Positions 4,681 through 46,900 of a DNA stretch of 64,000 nt are shown here, in pieces. Numbering within the stretch: the first letter of the stretch is position 1; the number at the start of each line of letters is the position of its first letter. The DNA is from a virus (taxonomy: Duplodnaviria; Caudoviricetes). A program made the translations under genes and the position numbers. The DNA lies in IMG/VR virus record IMGVR_UViG_3300045594_000145, positions 44,946 to 108,945 of that record, one strand, 5' to 3'. The notes under the pieces are model-generated. The model worked only from the letters and a program-made list of their open reading frames with translations, did not search any database and was not told the origin of the DNA.

Positions 4681-5340
4681 TCACTTCTCGCAGAAGTCAC
4701 AAACTTTAACCTTAGTGACAATGCGGCGCCCTCTGCGGTCACGCAATTCAAGAATAGGCTTACAGACAAGGCCTTCCATCACTAAAGAAGGATCCTCAGC
4801 AACAAGAGAAGTAGGCTTTGTCTTGACAAAAGCAATAGCTTCAGCTAGTGTCGCAGAAGGAAGTACAACTGGGGCCGCAGATATACCAAATTTAGTGGCA
4901 ACATCTTCAACATCCTGCCGAGAAAGGTATAGGTCGCCCTCAGGGAAATATACATCAAAGAGCGCAAAGCCGCAAGAGTCGTGTAAATATCTTCCTCCAC
5001 CCTTTTGAATCTTCGCCCCATAACCTTCTCCAAAGAGAATAACCTGAGTCGAGCCAAAGACTTGCTCAAAGAGTTCCTCGGTGTTAGAGTCTCCAAAAGT
5101 AGAAGTCAAGTAGAAAACTAGATTAGAAGGAAGTTGCGCCCTGTCAGTGTGTCCCGCAAAAGATACTCGATGCCCATCCCAGATAACTCTGGTATTAGTT
5201 CCGTCAATTTTTTCAGTGCAACAGAATGGCAAGTCTTTAATAAACTCAAGTTCCTCAGAACGATATGCGCCCTCTATTAACCTCTTAGTCCCATCTTCCG
5301 CTCTGCGGAATGGAGTTTCTATCTTTTGATATTCAATCAT
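4681..5340 (-). CDS. ATP-dependent RNA ligase (Rnl2-like nucleotidyltransferase domain)
   Basis: Motif I TEKIDGTN, motif III LFGEGYG, IIIa FALFDV, IV EGLVCKP, V KVK. Confidence 0.85.
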   Translation of the reverse strand: MIEYQKIETPFRRAEDGTKRLIEGAYRSEELEFIKDLPFCCTEKIDGTNTRVIWDGHRVSFAGHTDRAQLPSNLVFYLTSTFGDSNTEELFEQVFGSTQVILFGEGYGAKIQKGGGRYLHDSCGFALFDVYFPEGDLYLSRQDVEDVATKFGISAAPVVLPSATLAEAIAFVKTKPTSLVAEDPSLVMEGLVCKPILELRDRRGRRIVTKVKVCDFCEK

Positions 5341-8179: not shown

Positions 8180-8470
8180 TTAGTTGTCGGCCTTCAAATT
8201 ATAAATAGGATATAAGTGATCAAGAACCTCCGCAGTAGGCGCGATTAATTCTTCAATCTCTGCGGCGTCCTTATAGGCATCTGGGGCTTCGTCTAAAGTA
8301 TTGGCAGAAACAGAGGTAGTAACAATATCTTCCATCTGCTCCTTATAGGCATTGAGATCAATTGTTGCCTTAGCAACTGTTCTACTCATTGCGCGACCCG
8401 CGCCATGTGGGGCTGAGCAGTTCCATTCTTCATTCCCTAGACCCCTACAAATTAGAGTGCCGGCGCGCAT
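8180..8470 (-). pseudogene. rtcB: C-terminal remnant of RtcB RNA ligase
   Basis: SAPHGAGRxMSR and DEAPxAYK motifs; only 96 aa; in-frame TAA two codons upstream of the Met. Confidence 0.8.
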
Positions 8471-12406: not shown

Positions 12407-12469
12407 AATTGTATTCTCCTTTTCTTTATACATATAGTATACCATAAAAGGTAAAAAACGTCAACAGAG

Positions 12470-13870
12470 AAGTTTTAGAGATCTTGATAGTATTGTTACC
12501 AAAGCACGGAGCGCAATTTCTACTAAGATGTCAACTAAGATCCCACATGACGAGTCGATCTCCTGTTCACACACTTTTCTGTCCTTCCCCCACTTTTTAT
12601 CTACTTTTCTCCCACATTTTGCAGGAAATCTTCACTTTTGGTAGCACTGTTTCTTCCGGTTTTTAGATATGATTTTAGCTTAATCGTTCATTTAGGCTCA
12701 GAAAAACGGGTAAATATCCGAAAAAGGGCAAAAGCTAAATTTAAAGCTGCTCAGAATCAGCCAAAAGCTTAATTTTCATAGTAAAAAATCGGACAAAAGA
12801 CTCCTCCGGAGAGAAAAAATTTGCTCTGTGTTTCGTCGGCAAGGCTCTATGCTTTTAGCTTATCTTAAAGTGCGCGCACGCCCATCATTGGGTTCAATTC
12901 TTCAGTCATTATTCCACTATTTGCGGCTAGACATTCCCTAATTTTTGTCTAAAAAGTCAGGTTTCCCCCATATTTGGTCGAGTTTCTTACATTTTCCCCA
13001 CAATTTCATCGAGTTTCCTACAATTTTCTCATCCTTCCATCCTATTTCTTCTAAAAACTGCCTATCCCGCAACGTCTTTTTTCTATTACTGCCAATTATG
13101 TGATTTTTATAGCTTTTTCCCTTGTTTTTTCACATATTTATGCTAATAGAGCAAATTAAATTTTTCCCTCTACTCTCCCAAAGGAAGGGGCAAAAAGCGC
13201 TTTCTTATTCAGCTAGAATTCAGCGAAAAGCTTGATTTTTGAGTCAAAAAATATGACAAAACAACTTTCGGAGAGAAAATTTTGTCCTGTGTAATGTCAG
13301 AAGAACATTATGCTTTTAGCTGGTTGAAAATCCTGCGCAAAGAGTGCGGCCAGGTATGTCAGGATGCGCCGCATTTCAATAAAAACACCTGTGATATAGC
13401 TTTAAATTTTTTTTACGGGTATTTACTCGAAAAATGGAAAAACGCTTTTTTAAAGCGCTAAATAGGAAGCAAAAAGCTTGTTTTTTGAGTCAAAAATCAT
13501 GACAAAAGACTGCCCGGAGAGGAAAATTTTAGTTAAAAATCTGACACAGGAGTACACCCAATTTTTGATTTTAGAAGATATTGCGCGATGGACACTTTCT
13601 AAAATTTGTCTACCATTTGAAGTCTCACTAGTCCGCCATTTCGGGTTGGACTTTTTTGCCGTTTCAGTGGTCAAGATTTCCTTGACAAGTGGCCGACATG
13701 CGCGTAAAATTGTCGCGTTTGACGGGACACTGTATCTCTTAGTTGCGCCGCAGTTTATAATTTACTCCAAAAATTTTGTGTACCATTTTCAGAATACAGA
13801 ATTTTTTTAAGCTTTTTGCACAAAAAAAAATTGTGTACTCATTTCAGAATACAGAAATTTTTCCAGCTAT
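12470..13870. repeat. 1.4 kb non-coding block with three degenerate ~150-bp repeats and a 55-bp-period tandem repeat
   Basis: AAAAGCTT..GACAAAA..CGGAGAG(G)AAAA at 12807, 13269 and 13515; TATGCTTTTAGCT at 12848 and 13309; TTTCAGAATACAGAA at 13787 and 13842. Confidence 0.75.
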
Positions 13871-13879
13871 GGGCGCAAT

Positions 13880-13906
13880 AAAAAAGAGAAGCCGCAAGGC
13901 TTCTCT
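13880..13906 (-). terminator. intrinsic terminator
   Basis: AGAGAAGCC-TTGC-GGCTTCTCT followed by a U-tract on the minus strand. Confidence 0.8.
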
Positions 13907-13918
13907 CTAGGTCAACTA

Positions 13919-14212
13919 TTAGAACCAGAATGGAAAATTGAAAATTGAATCAAAGATATCGGTTGGCTTGTCATCAATGCGCGTCTCAACAGAGAACCAG
14001 GTGCCGTAATCCTTGATGAACTGATTCTTCAATTCATTGTAGTGATCGATTGCGTCTTCAGCAGACTTCTGCGCCTTCTCAACCTCAGCCGCACGCGCCT
14101 TCTTTTCTGCGTTCTTCTTCTTTGTGAGTTCTGCGCTCTTGGCTGCTTCTACTTCAGCCTTCTTTGCATCCTCGATGTTGTCAAATGTCTTTGTTCCTAC
14201 TAAATACTTCAT
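13919..14212 (-). CDS. Ala/Lys/Glu-rich coiled-coil hypothetical protein
   Basis: AAGGAG RBS before MKYLVG; high-expression codon bias. Confidence 0.8.
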   Translation of the reverse strand: MKYLVGTKTFDNIEDAKKAEVEAAKSAELTKKKNAEKKARAAEVEKAQKSAEDAIDHYNELKNQFIKDYGTWFSVETRIDDKPTDIFDSIFNFPFWF

Positions 14213-14229
14213 GTGTTTTCTCCTTTGCG

Positions 14230-15660
14230 GCCCTTGCTGCCGTCTTACTACTGCGTCTATCACGCAGGAAAAACCTGCCGAAGCAGGTTGTATGCGTAAA
14301 TGATATATACGTAGAATTATCCCAGTGGATTATCATTTACGACTAGAGAATTGGTTCTTCTACTTCGGCGGCGAACCGCTTCCTTGAATTAGTAGACTGC
14401 GCCGCATAGAGGCTTCTCTTATGCAGTCCTAATCAAATCATAATACACATACTTCTCAGGTATGCCGAGGCTTATTTGCACTGGTCATGACTCCACGCTT
14501 ATTCGCCATTTCTGCCGCAACCTACTTTCATCGCGATGTCCAGTAAGTTCTTTTGGTGTAACCATCCTAACAGTAAGGACTGGTAAGATTTGATTGTGAT
14601 AGATTTAGTTCTCTCGCCCAAGAGCAAGTCCAGCCGCACCCCGTGGAGGTATCTAACTTGCGGCCACCCGCTTATCTTATTGAAAGCGGTAGAAAGTCAG
14701 TTTTGCTCTTTGAAAAGCTAAGTCAACCTGCCGCCGCAGGATTTAAAGCGTACGCAACTCTTCTTTTTGGTTAAGAGAGGTATTGACGAGAGAACCGCCC
14801 CACGTCTGGGGACTTAGTGGCTTAAGCTTTGACTTCGTACAGTGCTACACTAACTGAAGTCTAGGCGTTAGTATGTCATTACATTGCAGTAATGGATACT
14901 TAATCCTTGTATTTTGGGTACGTCTGGAATCGAACCAAAACCTTCTCCCCATACAAGAGGAGATGCACAGCCACGCACTGTATACCGTCAGGGTCTTTCA
15001 CCAAAGGATTATTTGTAGAACTTTGTTTAGTCTGGAGCTACCAAATTGTCCACTCTCGCCACGGGGAGGCGTCTACTATGAGAGCATATAGATTGCGCGG
15101 TTACTTACTTGGGCGCGCCAATGAACCGTCTGCCGCAATCTTGATGTATTAGTTGGATATCCAGACACGCCACGAGGAGGCTACATCATGTGTCCATCCC
15201 CTTGCCTAGGAGCTACCTAGACAGGAGTTATATGCTTTCCCTAAGCAGGGGCCGAAGCCCAAGGGGTTAGTTCGCGTGGGAAACTACCAAGGTGCTAAAT
15301 CCGATCGGTTGCGCGCAATTTTCCTGACACTCTTTAGACTCGCGAGGAAAATTTCTAATTCTACGAGCAAGCTTTTCTCTTCTTTATACTTGGTGAGCGT
15401 TCATCCAAGCGGCGTTTACTTCTTTATCCTCGCATAAACACCAAAACGCGAGTCGGCCGCAGGCCGTTTATCCTTTAATTTTACCACTAGAGAAGTAGGA
15501 ATATGGGTATGTTCACTCGCGGAACATACAAGTAGCGCTTTGCTCTAATCACGGGATAGAGGTACGAGATCGGCAGTTCCTGTTTACCGCAAAGGTGGAG
15601 GTTTAGGGGTGCGTGAACCTGTTTCTTTCAATTATAACGCCCGAAGTTCTAAGAGGCAGC
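14230..15660 (-). ncRNA. candidate giant structured ncRNA with embedded tRNA-like domain
   Basis: ORF-free, GC-enriched, many nested long-range helices, minus-strand UUCG/GNRA loops (see findings). Confidence 0.65.
14915..14987 (-). tRNA. degenerate tRNA-like domain (pseudo-tRNA)
   Basis: GGTAT/GTACC acceptor, GTGC/GCAT D-stem with GG loop, TTTGG-TTCGATT-CCAGA T-arm; abnormal anticodon loop (CTTGTAT). Confidence 0.55.
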
Positions 15661-15663
15661 TTA

Positions 15664-15993
15664 TTACTTATTAGCTTTATAATTCTTCCAGAAATCGGAG
15701 TTGACTATAAAGTTATTCATATGGAGATAGAAGTTATCACTATAACCGGTTGCCGCATTAGTCATGTGATACTGATCAAACCATGCTTCTTCACTGTAAC
15801 CATTTGCTCTATCGTGGAAAGTAACACGATACACTGAATTGACGCCACTGTGGTCTTCATACCTATTATCGTATCTTTCATGGATAACCGCGTAGAAGCG
15901 ACCTTTGTAAACGTCCTTTTCTATTTGTTTATTCATGTGACGAACAGCAGTTCTAGCGCGTCTTTTATTCGCTCTTACTTTTTTGTCTATCAT
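15664..15993 (-). CDS. hypothetical protein with Arg/Lys-rich N-terminus
   Basis: MIDKKVRANKRRARTAVRHMNK; GAGGGAG RBS; promoter at 16019-16047. Confidence 0.8.
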   Translation of the reverse strand: MIDKKVRANKRRARTAVRHMNKQIEKDVYKGRFYAVIHERYDNRYEDHSGVNSVYRVTFHDRANGYSEEAWFDQYHMTNAATGYSDNFYLHMNNFIVNSDFWKNYKANK

Positions 15994-16018
15994 GTTAACT
16001 CCCTCACTTTCTATATAT

Positions 16019-16047
16019 ATTATATCATAGATTTTGAAGATTGTCAA
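16019..16047 (-). promoter_or_regulatory. sigmaA-type promoter for the protein + ncRNA unit
   Basis: TTGACA-17-TATAAT exact, with TG extension. Confidence 0.85.
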
Positions 16048-16049
16048 GC

Positions 16050-16256
16050 AGATGTTTGATGATTCTCAGTAGAAGAGCAGTTGCGCCGCGAGCAGGCGAT
16101 CATCATGCAACCATATGGGGAGCCGTCTGGCAAACGACTCCCAGCAAAAGAGAGAGTATACAAACGAACTTTTAGAACCCGAAGGGGTAGCCGCATTGCC
16201 ACGTCAAGGCAAGTTCGATAATGCGGGAGTCAATGCCCCGAAGGGCATCGACCGAT
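16050..16256 (-). ncRNA. candidate structured RNA (3' of the wHTH gene)
   Basis: Two C-UUCG-G hairpins plus CGAACTT/AAGTTCG, GGGAGTCGT/ACGGCTCCC and TGATGAT/ATCATCA stems. Confidence 0.45.
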
Positions 16257-16258
16257 AA

Positions 16259-16627
16259 TTACTTAGCGAGACTGTAAACCTTAGTCTTCTTCTCGCCGTC
16301 TGCTGAAACAGCCTTACCAGCCTTAACAAGAGCTGTTAATGCGCCGATAGCCTGAGCAGTTGTGATGTTAGCCTTAGCTGCGATATCCTTAGAACCTGCT
16401 GGTTCATCAGTCAGAACCGCAAGGACTGCGGCCCTACGAGCTTCAACTTCAGGATCAGCCTTACGGACTACTGGGTGAGCCTTACGATACTCCTTAACAT
16501 GAGCATCCTGTTCGATCTTTGCATCAACCCAAGCTGCCAGTTCAGCATCTGTATTTCCATTAGCGGTGAGGAAGTCCTTAATCATCTGTAAACCCTTAGT
16601 GTTAGTGATTTTTTCTGTCTTTTCCAT
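16259..16627 (-). CDS. C-terminal winged-HTH protein (paralog of 16853-17215)
   Basis: KADPEVEARRAAVLAVLT...KDIAAKANITTAQAIGALTALVKAG. Confidence 0.8.
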   Translation of the reverse strand: MEKTEKITNTKGLQMIKDFLTANGNTDAELAAWVDAKIEQDAHVKEYRKAHPVVRKADPEVEARRAAVLAVLTDEPAGSKDIAAKANITTAQAIGALTALVKAGKAVSADGEKKTKVYSLAK

Positions 16628-16852
16628 GATTTTCTTTTCGAGATTTTATAATCTCTTTCCCTTTCTTATAAGTACATTATACCATATAATTTTGAAATCG
16701 TCAATAATTTTTTTGTAAGATTTTTTCTTTGGGAATTTTCCCTTTCCTTACCTTACATAATAATTATAACATATTTTTTTGAGTCTGTCAACAACAATTT
16801 ATTTAAGCGATGAGAGGAAGTGCGCGCTGGGCGCACTTCCGATCAGTGAAGG

Positions 16853-43900: not shown

Positions 43901-46900
43901 AAGAGGGTAAGGCTGTTTTGAATTTAAACCAGCTTTACTCAAATTCAGCTAAAACTAACCGTAATGCTCTTGATGAAAAATACCTGTCTGATGCTTATGA
44001 TGTTTATTCTTCAAACGATATCCAAAAACAAGTCGCTGGCAATAGTGCTGCTTTATTAGGGACTTACCAAAATGCGACTTCTGCGGTTATCAAATATAAG
44101 GAAGAAATATCTAAGGCGATTTCTCTTGGTGATACAAAGAATTTAGATACTCTTAATGATAAATTAGCAGAGCAACAACAAATTTTAGCTACTTTAAATA
44201 GTGATTGGGATGAAATTGTTAGCAAGCCAATTACTTATGGAGATAAGTCTTTCCAGTCTTTGGATGATTCTGGCCAGACTTTGATGAAAAACTTAAGTTC
44301 TTTCAATAATTTCTCTTCTCTTGGCATTGGGCAAGACGAAGGTTCAATCAGTGCTTATACTGGAGAAATTGAAACTTTAAGTTCTAGTTTAGCAACTCTT
44401 GGAGATCAAGCCAATAATTTCCTTGGTATGGATCAACAGCTTCAAATTGACGCCGCAAATATTGGAATTAGTTATGGCTTCACAAGTGACCAACTTCAGA
44501 AATATATTAGTGGATTAACCGAAGCTTCTTTCTTACAAGGAACTTGGATAGACCAAGTTAAAGAATTTGCTGATTCAAATTATGACAAGAAAATTTCTTC
44601 TCTAAATGATCAAATCGCAGCTTTAGAAGACAAAATGGCCTCAAATTCGGAACAACAAAAATCCGAAGAATCAATGGCTGGTTTTGTTACCACTTCTGGA
44701 GATTTTGAAAGACAGCAAGAACTTGAGAAAGAAGCCAATAATGAAACTATTCGAGAACATCAAAGGTTAACAGATGCGAAAGCTAGGGCAGTTCGAGATC
44801 AAGCTAACCTAGACAAAGAACTTTTAAGAGTTTATGAATCAGATGCTCGCCAGTATGCAAACTCTTCCAATGAAGCGTATAATAAAGTTTTAGACGATTT
44901 CAATGAAATGCAGTCTAAAATGGCTGACAGTGACGATGATACTAAAGCTGATTTACAGAAAAAATCTGGACGTCTCTATGCCATCTTAAAGGGTGACGAT
45001 GCCGATTATTATGATCACTGGGTTTCAATTAATATGGCTGAGATTGGAGACGAAGCCGAAAAAACTGGAATTTTAGCATCAAATTATAGCACTTATAATG
45101 AATATATGAGTGCCGTTGATGCAGAATATGCTAAAGCAAAAATAATTATTGCGAATACCACTGGAAAGGGTATCTTAGAAACAGAACAAGCGATTACTAA
45201 TGAGAAATATAAAAATTTAGCTGTCCAGTTAAGAAATGAAGGCAATAACGCTTCTGCGGAAACTTTAATTGCTGGTTCCGTTTCTGATAATAAAATATTA
45301 AAAGATAATGCAGCAACTACTGCTCAATTAGAAGGTCTTAGACAGACATTGCTTGCTAGAAAAGCACACGGTGAGCGAGTTTTAATATCAACCGACGGAG
45401 TTTATGAACAATTAGGAAATTTATATAATAACTCAATGAGTGCGATTGGCGCAGACGTAGTTGGTTTTGCCAATACGGGGACTGAACAAGTTTCCATTGA
45501 TGAAGCTCTTAAAAGTATTGATAAGGCTGAAGCAGCAATTAATAAAAAAACTAAAGAGACCGAAGGCAACGGTTCTTTGACTCAAGAACAGCAAGACGAG
45601 ATCAATGCTGCTATTGCCGGTTTCCAAAATTATGCTGACCTTGTGAAAGGTTCAACTGGTACTGAGTCAGATTTTAATTATGATACTACTGATTTTGGTG
45701 CATTAGCATATAAAGATACTGGCGGAGATGTTGTCAGTAATACCACCCCAGATGATGGAAGTGGCGATAGGGATAAAACAAAGAAGACTAAGCTTACTTC
45801 TTTAAAGGACATTAAAGAAGGTAAGGTCTACGATGAAACCATTGATAAATTAAAGAGATATGATGAAGAAATTGCTCAGGTTGAACATGATTTAGATATT
45901 CTTTCTGCAAAAAAAGACCATCTATATGGTACAGCTTATCTCGATAATCTTAAGAAAGAAATTGACCTTCAACAGAAAGATTTAGACCTTTCTAAGCAAC
46001 GTTTAACTGCCGCTGAAGCTATCGGCGCGCAAGAGAAGATAGACTTAGAAACACAAGCTAAAGCGCATAATCTTGCACTTGCTTATTCTTCTACCGGTTC
46101 TATTTCTAACTATAATGATATTATTCAAGCAATGGAAGCCGCTTCAAAAGATTATCAGACTACTATTGATGCTAAGACCGCGCAAGTAACTGCTTTAACA
46201 ACTCAATATAACGCAATGAAAGCAGCATATGATGATGCCTCAGATAATGACGCTAAAAATGCTGAATTAAATGCTTCTGCTGACCAAATGAATGCGCTTG
46301 CTGACCAGATTAATGCCATTACAGAAGAAGTCAATGCTTCGGTTGCAAGTCAATCTACATACAATGATTGGACAAAGAGTTTCAAAGACTCAATGGATAA
46401 TTATGAAAAGTATGCTGTTGAGGAAGTCCAAAAGACAGAAAAAGACATTCAAGATAAAATCTCTAAAGTTCTTACAGATAAGATTGAAGCTATTGAATAT
46501 CCAGTCACAATTGTAACAGATGCTTCTGAACAAAATGAAAAATACCTTGACTTACTTGCTGATATTGCAAAGAATAAAGGCAAAGTAACTTTCTCGGTTG
46601 ATGAAACAAATAATTTTGATAAGTTACAGAATACAATTAGTGAAATTAATTCACTGCTATCTCCAAGTGTTACCGGAGGTCTAAAAGATCTTCTAACTCA
46701 GAGTGACAATTTACTTGGTAAGATTCAGGACACTGATCTTGCGGCGGCACCTAAAGATTTGCTTGATGCTATTCGCAAGCAAGAAGAAACAATGATTAGT
46801 ACAGCATCTAATTTACAATCAATTATTTCTTCAATGAAGGATGCCTTTCAGACTGGCGTTGACTCTGCTGTTAGTACATTAAATGATGCCCTTGATAAAT

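Follow-up and report, generated by a model that had tools for sequence, protein, structure and literature searches.

The 108,945-bp phage record IMGVR_UViG_3300045594_000145 (Caudoviricetes; direct terminal repeats, 36% GC) carries a 1.44-kb noncoding stretch that is probably a self-processing array built from ribozymes resembling that of hepatitis delta virus (HDV). The stretch lies in the right-hand 64 kb of the record (64,000 nucleotides (nt), positions 44,946 to 108,945), which we call the window and to which coordinates refer unless given as genome positions. It runs from 14222 to 15663, between the start of a 100-amino-acid (aa) gene, ORF100, at 14221 and the stop of a 109-aa gene, ORF109, at 15664, both on the minus strand (Table 1). 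An earlier account of this DNA made from its letters alone, the sequence-only reading, had described 1.4 kb that were gene-free, GC-rich and transcribed from the minus strand. Under table 11 the largest open reading frame (ORF) of the stretch is no longer than 81 aa and no gene is credible, and the GC content is 0.44-0.49 against 0.36 genome-wide; a consensus promoter (16047-16019) and terminator (13908-13883) on the minus strand point to the same direction of transcription. For comparison we used 14 related contigs, fetched through the ORF109 protein cluster, from sludge, manure, pig and wastewater samples.

Predicted HDV-like ribozymes

Read by eye, the minus strand carries a recurring core, NCC-UCYNCG-GGN inside a helix of 6-7 base pairs (bp), followed by GG, then C-N-R-A, and then bases that can pair with those upstream of the core. 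A covariance model of this P1-P3 core was built from six copies and scored at every genome position with filters off. Across the 109-kb genome it returned seven matches at E <=2e-4, the next best having E >1; the seven share the minus strand, and all fall between mapped ORFs, none within one. Four of the matches fall inside the stretch (Rz1 to Rz4), two just upstream (RzA and RzB, between a winged-helix gene and the promoter), and one at genome 39803-39732. Rz4 and a further ribozyme type in relatives were found by the model without being in its training set.

All seven copies parse as a nested double pseudoknot, with P1, P2, P3, P1.1 and an optional P4 in canonical order. P3 is a GC-rich helix of 3 bp, L3 has 7 nt and P2 has 5-8 bp, while P1.1 consists in most copies of two pairs, with a single pair in Rz4 and RzA. 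In every copy J4/2 reads C-N-R-A directly before the 3′ strand of P2 (CUAA in four, and CAAA, CCAA and CUGA); HDV itself has CGAA in the same arrangement. The first base of J4/2, the candidate catalytic C, is invariant in relatives, and the next base varies between U and C. In Rz2 the candidate C15025 is invariant, whereas C15030 is U in relatives.

Covariation supports the pairing. Over 13 distinct copies, relatives included, pairing is 100% in both P1 and P3, and each of the 6 pairs of P1 covaries, in an alignment fitted to the core model, which favours these figures; sliding the partner strand by 1-3 columns as a control lowers pairing to 32-50%. Orthologous copies of Rz3 offer a comparison independent of the core model: P1 is GGCCGC/GCGGCU here and GGCUAU/GUAGCU in five relatives, which amounts to two double compensatory changes and one G·U, and the relatives' P2 is a perfect 8 bp. 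The first pair of P1 is G·U in 7 of the 13 distinct copies, G-C in 4 and C-G in 2, so that only RzA and its variant are without G at +1. The G1·U wobble, present in 5/7 copies of the phage, pairs in the minus-strand RNA only.

The published drz-Mtgn-1 sequence (quoted in PMC10879173) parses alike, with J4/2 CUAA, and four of four theta ribozymes assayed in vitro self-cleave (PMC10879173). In Rfam, Rz2 (15016-15085, minus strand) gives a weak match to RF02682, the F. prausnitzii HDV ribozyme, at 17.7 bits against a gathering score of 44. In the relative L017 the position of RzB is taken by a different HDV-like ribozyme, which matches RF00094 end to end at 30.7 bits (gathering score 50). Of three home-made HDV descriptors, the loose version is swamped by chance matches, a stricter one recovers 4/7 copies and a third yields 0-1 matches per shuffled genome, plus a few with A/G at the catalytic place; because of the chance matches we leave descriptor counts out as evidence, and the case rests on model scores and covariation. 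On that footing the four folds in the stretch are predicted HDV-like (delta/theta-type) self-cleaving ribozymes, which the sequence-only reading had missed.

Table 1 Features of the noncoding stretch and its surroundings, in window coordinates unless stated
Feature	Position	Strand	Score	Candidate catalytic C	Predicted cut between	Elements and remarks
Rz1	15142..15195	-	core model 39.3 bits, E 4.5e-7	15152	15196/15195	minimal, without P4; P1 GGACAC/GUGUCU, P2 UGAUGUA/UACAUCA, P3 GCC/GGC, L3 UCCUCGU, P1.1 CC/GG, J4/2 CUAA; one variable site among ~11 relatives
Rz2	15015..15085	-	core model 41.6 bits	15025	15086/15085	with P4; P1 GCUCUC/GAGAGU, L3 UCCCCGU, P1.1 CC/GG, P4 UUUGG-UAGCU-CCAGA, J4/2 CAAA
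Rz3	14600..14665	-	core model 43.4 bits	14608	14666/14665	with P4; P1 GGCCGC/GCGGCU, L3 UCCACGG, P1.1 CC/GG, P4 CUCUU-GGGC-GAGAG, J4/2 CUAA
Rz4	14345..14429	-	core model 29 bits, E 1.7e-4	14354	14430/14429	large P4; untrained copy, also a descriptor match; P1 GGACUGC/GCAGUCU, P2 AGAGAA/UUCUCU, L3 UCUAUGC, J4/2 CCAA
RzA	16165..16226	-	37.6 bits			33 nt after stop of 122-aa winged-helix gene; P1 CCGCAUU/AAUGCGG, P4 ACCC-CUUC-GGGU, J4/2 CUAA
RzB	16057..16112	-	38.1 bits			minimal; just upstream of promoter; identical in 14 relatives; P1 GGUUGC/GCAACU, L3 UGCUCGC, P1.1 GC/GC, J4/2 CUGA
Seventh ribozyme	genome 39732-39803 (L003 4732-4803)	-				outside the window; in 363-nt ORF-free gap, ~1.3 kb from nearest tRNA; P1 GGGCAAU/AUUGCCU, P1.1 CU/AG, UUCG-capped P4
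S0	15196..15663	-				468-nt noncoding RNA or long 3′ untranslated region; ends at predicted cut of Rz1
S1	15086..15141	-				56-nt hairpin read from sequence; closing stem GAUUGCG/CGCAAUC, then UAUAU and the predicted Rz2 cut
tRNA-shaped domain	14903..15008, core 14915-14987	-				own closing helix; ARAGORN tRNA-Thr-like call at core
S2b	14666..14902	-				strain-variable hairpin modules; ends in CCGCUU/AAGCGG hairpin and GU before predicted Rz3 cut
S3	14430..14599	-				170-nt domain closed by 9-bp AAUCAAAUC/GAUUUGAUU, read from sequence; 1 nt before predicted Rz4 cut
S4	14222..14344	-				11-bp hairpin 14341-14295; terminator-like hairpin with U5, 14289-14268; further hairpin; ribosome-binding site of next gene
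Promoter	16019..16047	-	12/12 matches			sigma-70-type, TTGACA-17 nt-TATAAT with TG (extended -10); directly downstream of RzB
ORF109	15664..15993	-				109 aa; Arg/Lys-rich N-terminus; no family match; first gene of the predicted unit
ORF100	13919..14221	-				97-100 aa; Lys/Glu/Ala-rich; last gene of the predicted unit
Intrinsic terminator	13883..13908	-				11-bp stem, GCAA loop, T run

Conservation and modular variation

The 14 related contigs are colinear with the locus and 91-97% identical, and they keep the ribozymes. Divergence from the window is 6.1% for ORF109, 0.5% for Rz1, 0.0% for RzB, 2.5% for S1 and 10.8% for central S0; conservation is higher in the ribozymes and S3 than in the neighbouring gene ORF109, S3 having 2-4 variable sites among five full-length relatives. 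The interval between the flanking genes ranges from 1442 to 1826 nt by strain, with modules of ~100-370 nt inserted, deleted or replaced while adjoining modules remain 97-99% identical. Insertions in S2b of relatives measure 98-122 nt or 257 nt, the latter consisting of an extra HDV-like ribozyme followed 10 nt later by a second tRNA-like unit. Such module swapping speaks for a string of separable units rather than a single RNA with a global fold.

Variation among relatives also bears on whether the stretch encodes a protein with TAG read as Gln. A 176-aa plus-strand frame, 14907-15437, is open under that reading, a gene caller placed a 178-aa gene in L017 and L018, and Phass-1, the closest relative with a name, is classified in a code 15 clade. 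However, table 11 leaves the long structural genes of the phage open and the phage lacks a suppressor tRNA; the frame also crosses two ribozymes and the tRNA-like unit in antisense, and the L017 frame, which corresponds to the one here, has four table 11 stops. We rejected the frame, single-base indels among close relatives falling inside it, and regard coding by this route as extremely improbable. The public gene call (L017 1120-1656 and L018 457-993, both minus strand and antisense to the array) is probably a miscall. A table 4 reading of the stretch gave nothing convincing.

RNAs between the ribozymes

The pieces between the ribozymes share one layout: each of the four predicted cuts in the stretch follows the 3′ strand of a helix at a distance of 1-5 nt. 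The spacer is AU after the terminal hairpin of S0, UAUAU after S1, GU after the hairpin before Rz3 and A after the closing helix of S3, and the same helix-then-cut order recurs upstream of RzA (6-nt spacer) and RzB. In S0, hairpins at 15529-15507, 15506-15484, 15442-15411 and 15409-15389 are backed by covariation, four pairs changing on both sides with a score reached by 0/500 shuffles. One S0 loop changes from UUCG to CUUG in L017, and another S0 stem has both strands replaced wholesale in L007, still complementary. The 11-bp hairpin of S4 has one pair that is U-A, C-G or U·G by strain.

The helices that the sequence-only reading listed are all present as complementarity, and their standing is unequal. 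TGATGTA/TACATCA is P2 of Rz1, and GATTGCG/CGCAATC forms the hairpin that precedes Rz2. Two others are closing helices, AATCAAATC/GATTTGATT for the domain ahead of Rz4 and AATCCTT/AAGGATT for the tRNA-like one, and CGTAAATGATA/TATCATTTACG has one covarying pair (U-A, C-G or U·G). The UUCG loops it noted are real and swap with CUUG in relatives, as in the P4 tetraloop of Rz4 in L006 and L007. In contrast, the long-range helix GACTCGCG/CGCGAGTC (GACUCGCG/CGCGAGUC in RNA), which starts at 15337 rather than 15338, lacks covariation, is only 82% paired in relatives and is broken at two pairs in most of them; the changes in the L015 variant contradict CCCCTTG/CAAGGGG (CCCCUUG/CAAGGGG in RNA) and strengthen a rival hairpin; and GTTCTCTCG/CGAGAGAAC competes with P4 of Rz3. 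Homologues yield compensating pairs in S0, the tRNA-like domain and S4 and none in the long-range helices. By minimum free energy the 3′ 974 nt fold moderately better than shuffles (z = -2.31, 0/20 shuffles as good) and the 5′ 468 nt (S0) no better (z = 0.02), so the dense nested helices exceed chance only in part.

The sequence-only reading had offered a very large member of the GOLLD/ROOL class, a new class, or a cluster of several noncoding RNAs, and the last comes closest. One giant ornate RNA folded as a single particle would account for 1.44 kb of ORF-free, GC-rich DNA with many helices capped by UUCG and GNRA loops, for the folding energy of the 3′ part and for an embedded tRNA-like domain, which some GOLLD RNAs also contain. 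Against this, Rfam searches (window at gathering score; 13700-16200 at E up to 10) found no GOLLD, ROOL, OLE or intron match, four predicted self-cleaving folds would fragment the transcript, the long-range helices are without covariation or contradicted, and close relatives insert, delete or swap 100-370-nt modules and keep the rest. A single giant RNA is therefore very unlikely. At the same Rfam scopes the stretch has no hammerhead, twister or tRNA match, and the relatives and two unrelated arrays described below likewise lack matches to all these families, GOLLD, ROOL, OLE and introns included.

Metatranscriptome contigs from four RNA-library runs of three studies were laid on 13800-16700. 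They cover parts of the stretch, with strand, ends and level not readable from contigs and DNA carry-over possible. One 240-nt contig (15308-15549) has high contig depth, and some contigs bridge predicted cut sites, where DNA carry-over is again possible. No joints or back-joined forms were seen among the contigs of the four runs, contigs being a poor test for them. We do not use these contigs as evidence on expression or cleavage in either direction.

A tRNA-like domain

The tRNA-like domain announced by the sequence-only reading coincides with an ARAGORN element at 14915-14987 (minus strand). Its D stem is 4 bp long and carries a GG loop, its T arm has a loop of the UUCGAUU type, and a further stem resembles an acceptor stem; the unit starts 28 nt after the end of Rz2 and stops 250 nt before Rz3. 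Position 1:72 is C·C in all strains, and the 'anticodon' loop has 5, 7 or 9 nt; we therefore read the unit as a conserved tRNA mimic rather than a decoding tRNA. Across three sequence types, G-C alternates with A-U at acceptor pairs 3 and 5, and the second pair of the T stem is U·G, C-G or U-A; the anticodon and T-stem pairs were read by eye, as MAFFT shifts the strands by one column. ARAGORN calls the unit in only 2/7 sequence types, and the Rfam tRNA model RF00005 does not match the domain at E up to 10 (tRNA criterion 29 bits). The second tRNA-like unit of some relatives is unrelated to the first; its T arm is perfect and its 'anticodon' loop has 5-6 nt. Both types lie downstream of a ribozyme, by 10-28 nt, which is the reverse of the order in theta-ribozyme/tRNA pairs.

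Against the positions of tRNAs called by ARAGORN and Rfam, 0/7 copies place their cleavage site <=5 nt from a tRNA 3′ end, the strict theta criterion, and none of the seven sits in either of the two clusters that hold the phage's 20 ordinary tRNA genes. This arrangement speaks to whether the locus could be a relic, a decayed tRNA-theta-ribozyme array whose tRNAs are now stubs or hairpins carried as neutral baggage. The ribozyme type is that found at phage tRNA 3′ ends (PMC10879173; classical in L057 and L070), the anticodon loops of the tRNA-like units are broken, modules come and go by strain, and 20 normal tRNAs exist elsewhere in the phage. Yet no ribozyme adjoins the 3′ end of a tRNA-like unit, the ribozymes and S3 are more conserved than ORF109, stems are kept paired through compensatory changes and stable-tetraloop swaps, and the array persists in 14 contigs from several habitats. 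Decay of this kind appears unlikely.

Elsewhere, T-loop motifs GGTTCRANTCC that ARAGORN leaves uncalled occur near HDV-like matches in the tRNA islands of other phages (L035 5034-5044 and 5974-5984; L056 5008-5018 and 5513-5523), which hints at further tRNA mimics beside ribozymes.

Proposed processing of the transcript

We consider it likely that the stretch is a self-processing noncoding array. One early minus-strand transcription unit would comprise the promoter, ORF109, the 1.44-kb noncoding RNA, ORF100 and the terminator. The four HDV-like ribozymes would fold co-transcriptionally, each cutting at its own 5′ end. The predicted products are an ORF109 mRNA tailed by 468 nt of structured RNA (S0), three RNAs of ~110, 420 and 236 nt that begin with a ribozyme, and a 3′ piece, also ribozyme-headed, that may stop at the U-run hairpin 14289-14268 or carry ORF100. 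Upstream pieces would end in a hairpin and a 2′,3′-cyclic phosphate, while downstream pieces would begin with a 5′-OH on a compact fold. The tRNA-shaped domain within the 420-nt piece is a likely RNase P or RNase Z substrate, and its processing would split that piece further.

The most likely purpose would be to set transcript ends and uncouple the stability of the flanking small genes, and also to free a number of stable folded RNAs, a tRNA mimic among them. We infer this from the constant 'helix, 1-5 nt, cut' geometry and from RzB (or its L017 replacement) directly upstream of the promoter, together with the known end chemistry and the role proposed for clustered bacterial ribozymes (PMC6765202).

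Several observations weigh against this interpretation. All seven copies fall short of an Rfam gathering score, and besides Rz2 none gives a match at E up to 10. The first P1 pair of RzA is C-G, P1.1 of Rz4 is one pair only, and P2 of Rz2 and of RzB each needs one bulge. The third descriptor, itself loose, scores 0-1 matches per shuffled genome on its own. S0 folds no better than its shuffles, and the relatives are only 3-9% diverged, so spacer covariation rests on few events. What the released RNAs are for is pure inference.

Ribozyme-bounded pieces might instead be circularised, by a host RtcB-type ligase or by the phage RNA ligase after end healing, giving circles of 110, 420 and 236 nt and one of 114 nt between RzA and RzB. 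HDV-like cleavage leaves 5′-OH and 2′,3′-cyclic phosphate ends that suit RtcB, and the PF09414 RNA ligase and RtcB families act on RNA ends of the ribozyme-made kind. The phage has an RNA ligase gene at 4681-5340 (minus strand; PF09414, 57 bits) and an RtcB C-terminal fragment at 8180-8470 (minus strand). In theta-ribozyme phages, RNA ligase genes are enriched 140-fold (PMC10879173). On the other hand, the phage RtcB is a 96-aa remnant that matches only the last 100 positions of RtcB, PF09414 ligases require 5′-P/3′-OH ends, and back-joined contigs were absent from the four RNA runs, a poor test. We hold a circular RNA factory to be improbable; circle production is nevertheless compatible with a self-processing array and does not exclude it.

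Neighbouring genes and genome setting

The ORF109 protein cluster has 95 members at >=90% identity, and in a set of 1.8 billion representatives the ORF100 protein has ~115 distant relatives (~100 aa, E 1e-7 to 1e-3), without a family name; searches of both proteins against PHROGs and Pfam gave nothing usable. The capsid protein shares only 24-38% identity with its counterparts in Phass-1, in large Enterococcus phages and in Lactococcus 949-type phages. DNA that is near-identical or 91-97% identical occurs in runs from bioreactor sludge, manure, pig and wastewater. A blastn search of 50,697 phage records gave no match, and IMG/VR peptide-pattern scans with both flanking proteins and the capsid protein found nothing.

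The hexamer GCCGCA occurs 108 times genome-wide on both strands, against ~13 expected from base composition and a median of 12 for hexamers of the same composition. Copies in the window include 13747, 13891, 14401, 14514, 14633, 14733, 15132 and 15456, with no wider context conserved. They account in part for the GC-richness of the stretch, and the hexamer may be a DNA-level signal. A second ORF-poor region of ~1.4 kb, 12446-13918, lies directly downstream of the terminator and contains direct repeats (13193-13283 with 13438-13530; 13769-13830 with 13824-13885; 76-79% identity).

Comparison with known systems

Like GOLLD and ROOL, the locus is a large ORF-free, GC-rich, structured phage stretch with a tRNA link. 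Unlike them, it has no model match at E up to 10 and no conserved global architecture, and it is modular and contains internal ribozymes.

The tRNA-like unit has counterparts in mascRNA of MALAT1 and in YrlA. In YrlA the RNA ends leave via the anticodon side, whereas in the unit here they leave via the acceptor side. These RNAs, mascRNA and the bacterial Y RNA YrlA (PMC4201824), likewise combine a T arm, a D arm and an acceptor-like stem with no working anticodon loop, within a longer noncoding RNA, and mimics of this kind are RNase P substrates. The phage has no match to a Ro60/TROVE gene, in a search that detected the gene in control genomes, and no YrlA match in Rfam.

The literature on clustered ribozymes mainly concerns hammerhead, twister, pistol and hatchet motifs. 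At the present locus, in contrast, all units are HDV-like and the intervening pieces are themselves conserved structured RNAs. For clustered ribozymes of bacteria and prophages, processing of polycistronic transcripts has been proposed as a role (Weinberg et al. 2019, PMC6765202).

Other phage contigs were surveyed with a degenerate core pattern that makes no demand on P1 pairing. It hit 49 IMG/VR loci, and in 46/49 the model confirms such pairing. Some are classical theta ribozymes adjoining tRNAs, for example L057 and L070. Two IMG/VR contigs unrelated to the phage, L060 (2314-3358, plus strand) and L064 (4441-5211, plus strand), each have three HDV-like cores in ~1 kb of ORF-poor DNA; the records, 64-76 kb in full, contain no other ribozyme match. 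No tRNA is called by ARAGORN in the ~5 kb fetched for each locus. Phass-1 and Enterococcus phage EF1, both distant capsid relatives, have no match to the ribozyme model.

A broader and more doubtful possibility is that large phages carry cassette arrays, in which small structured RNAs, tRNA mimics included, are cut out by HDV-like ribozymes and RNase P. Exchange between strains suggests payloads under diversifying pressure; these might be, for example, decoys or sponges against host RNA-targeting defences or against tRNA or RNA repair machinery. In that case the ribozyme would serve phages as a general tool for making the 3′ ends of stable RNAs and not as a tRNA accessory.

The closest known relatives are the theta and minimal HDV-like (drz-Mtgn) ribozymes, a class whose presence in phage noncoding DNA is already published (Kienbeck et al. 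2024, PMC10879173). They share the double-pseudoknot fold, a P4 that is short or absent as in Rz1 and RzB, the J4/2 of drz-Mtgn-1, and the kind of host, large Caudoviricetes of gut and manure habitats. That study counted 526 occurrences away from tRNAs, mostly in noncoding DNA and of unknown function. Neither it nor the other literature searched describes an array in one ORF-free transcript, tRNA mimics downstream of ribozymes as punctuation, or cassette-like variation between strains. Theta ribozymes sit at tRNA 3′ ends, whereas 0/7 copies here lie within 5 nt of one and none in a tRNA cluster; a single ORF-free transcript of 1.4 kb holds four, all placed behind helices that are not tRNAs, tRNA-like units follow the ribozymes, and several copies keep a full P4. 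The role of most HDV-like ribozymes is open, above all for the several hundred phage occurrences away from tRNAs, and the locus offers a compact, naturally varied test case, with four helix-adjacent ribozymes per transcript, conserved RNAs, a mimic and module swaps. If the pieces are stable RNAs, ribozyme-made 3′ ends would extend from tRNAs to a wider class of phage small RNAs, and the pieces would be candidates for new phage-host RNA interactions.

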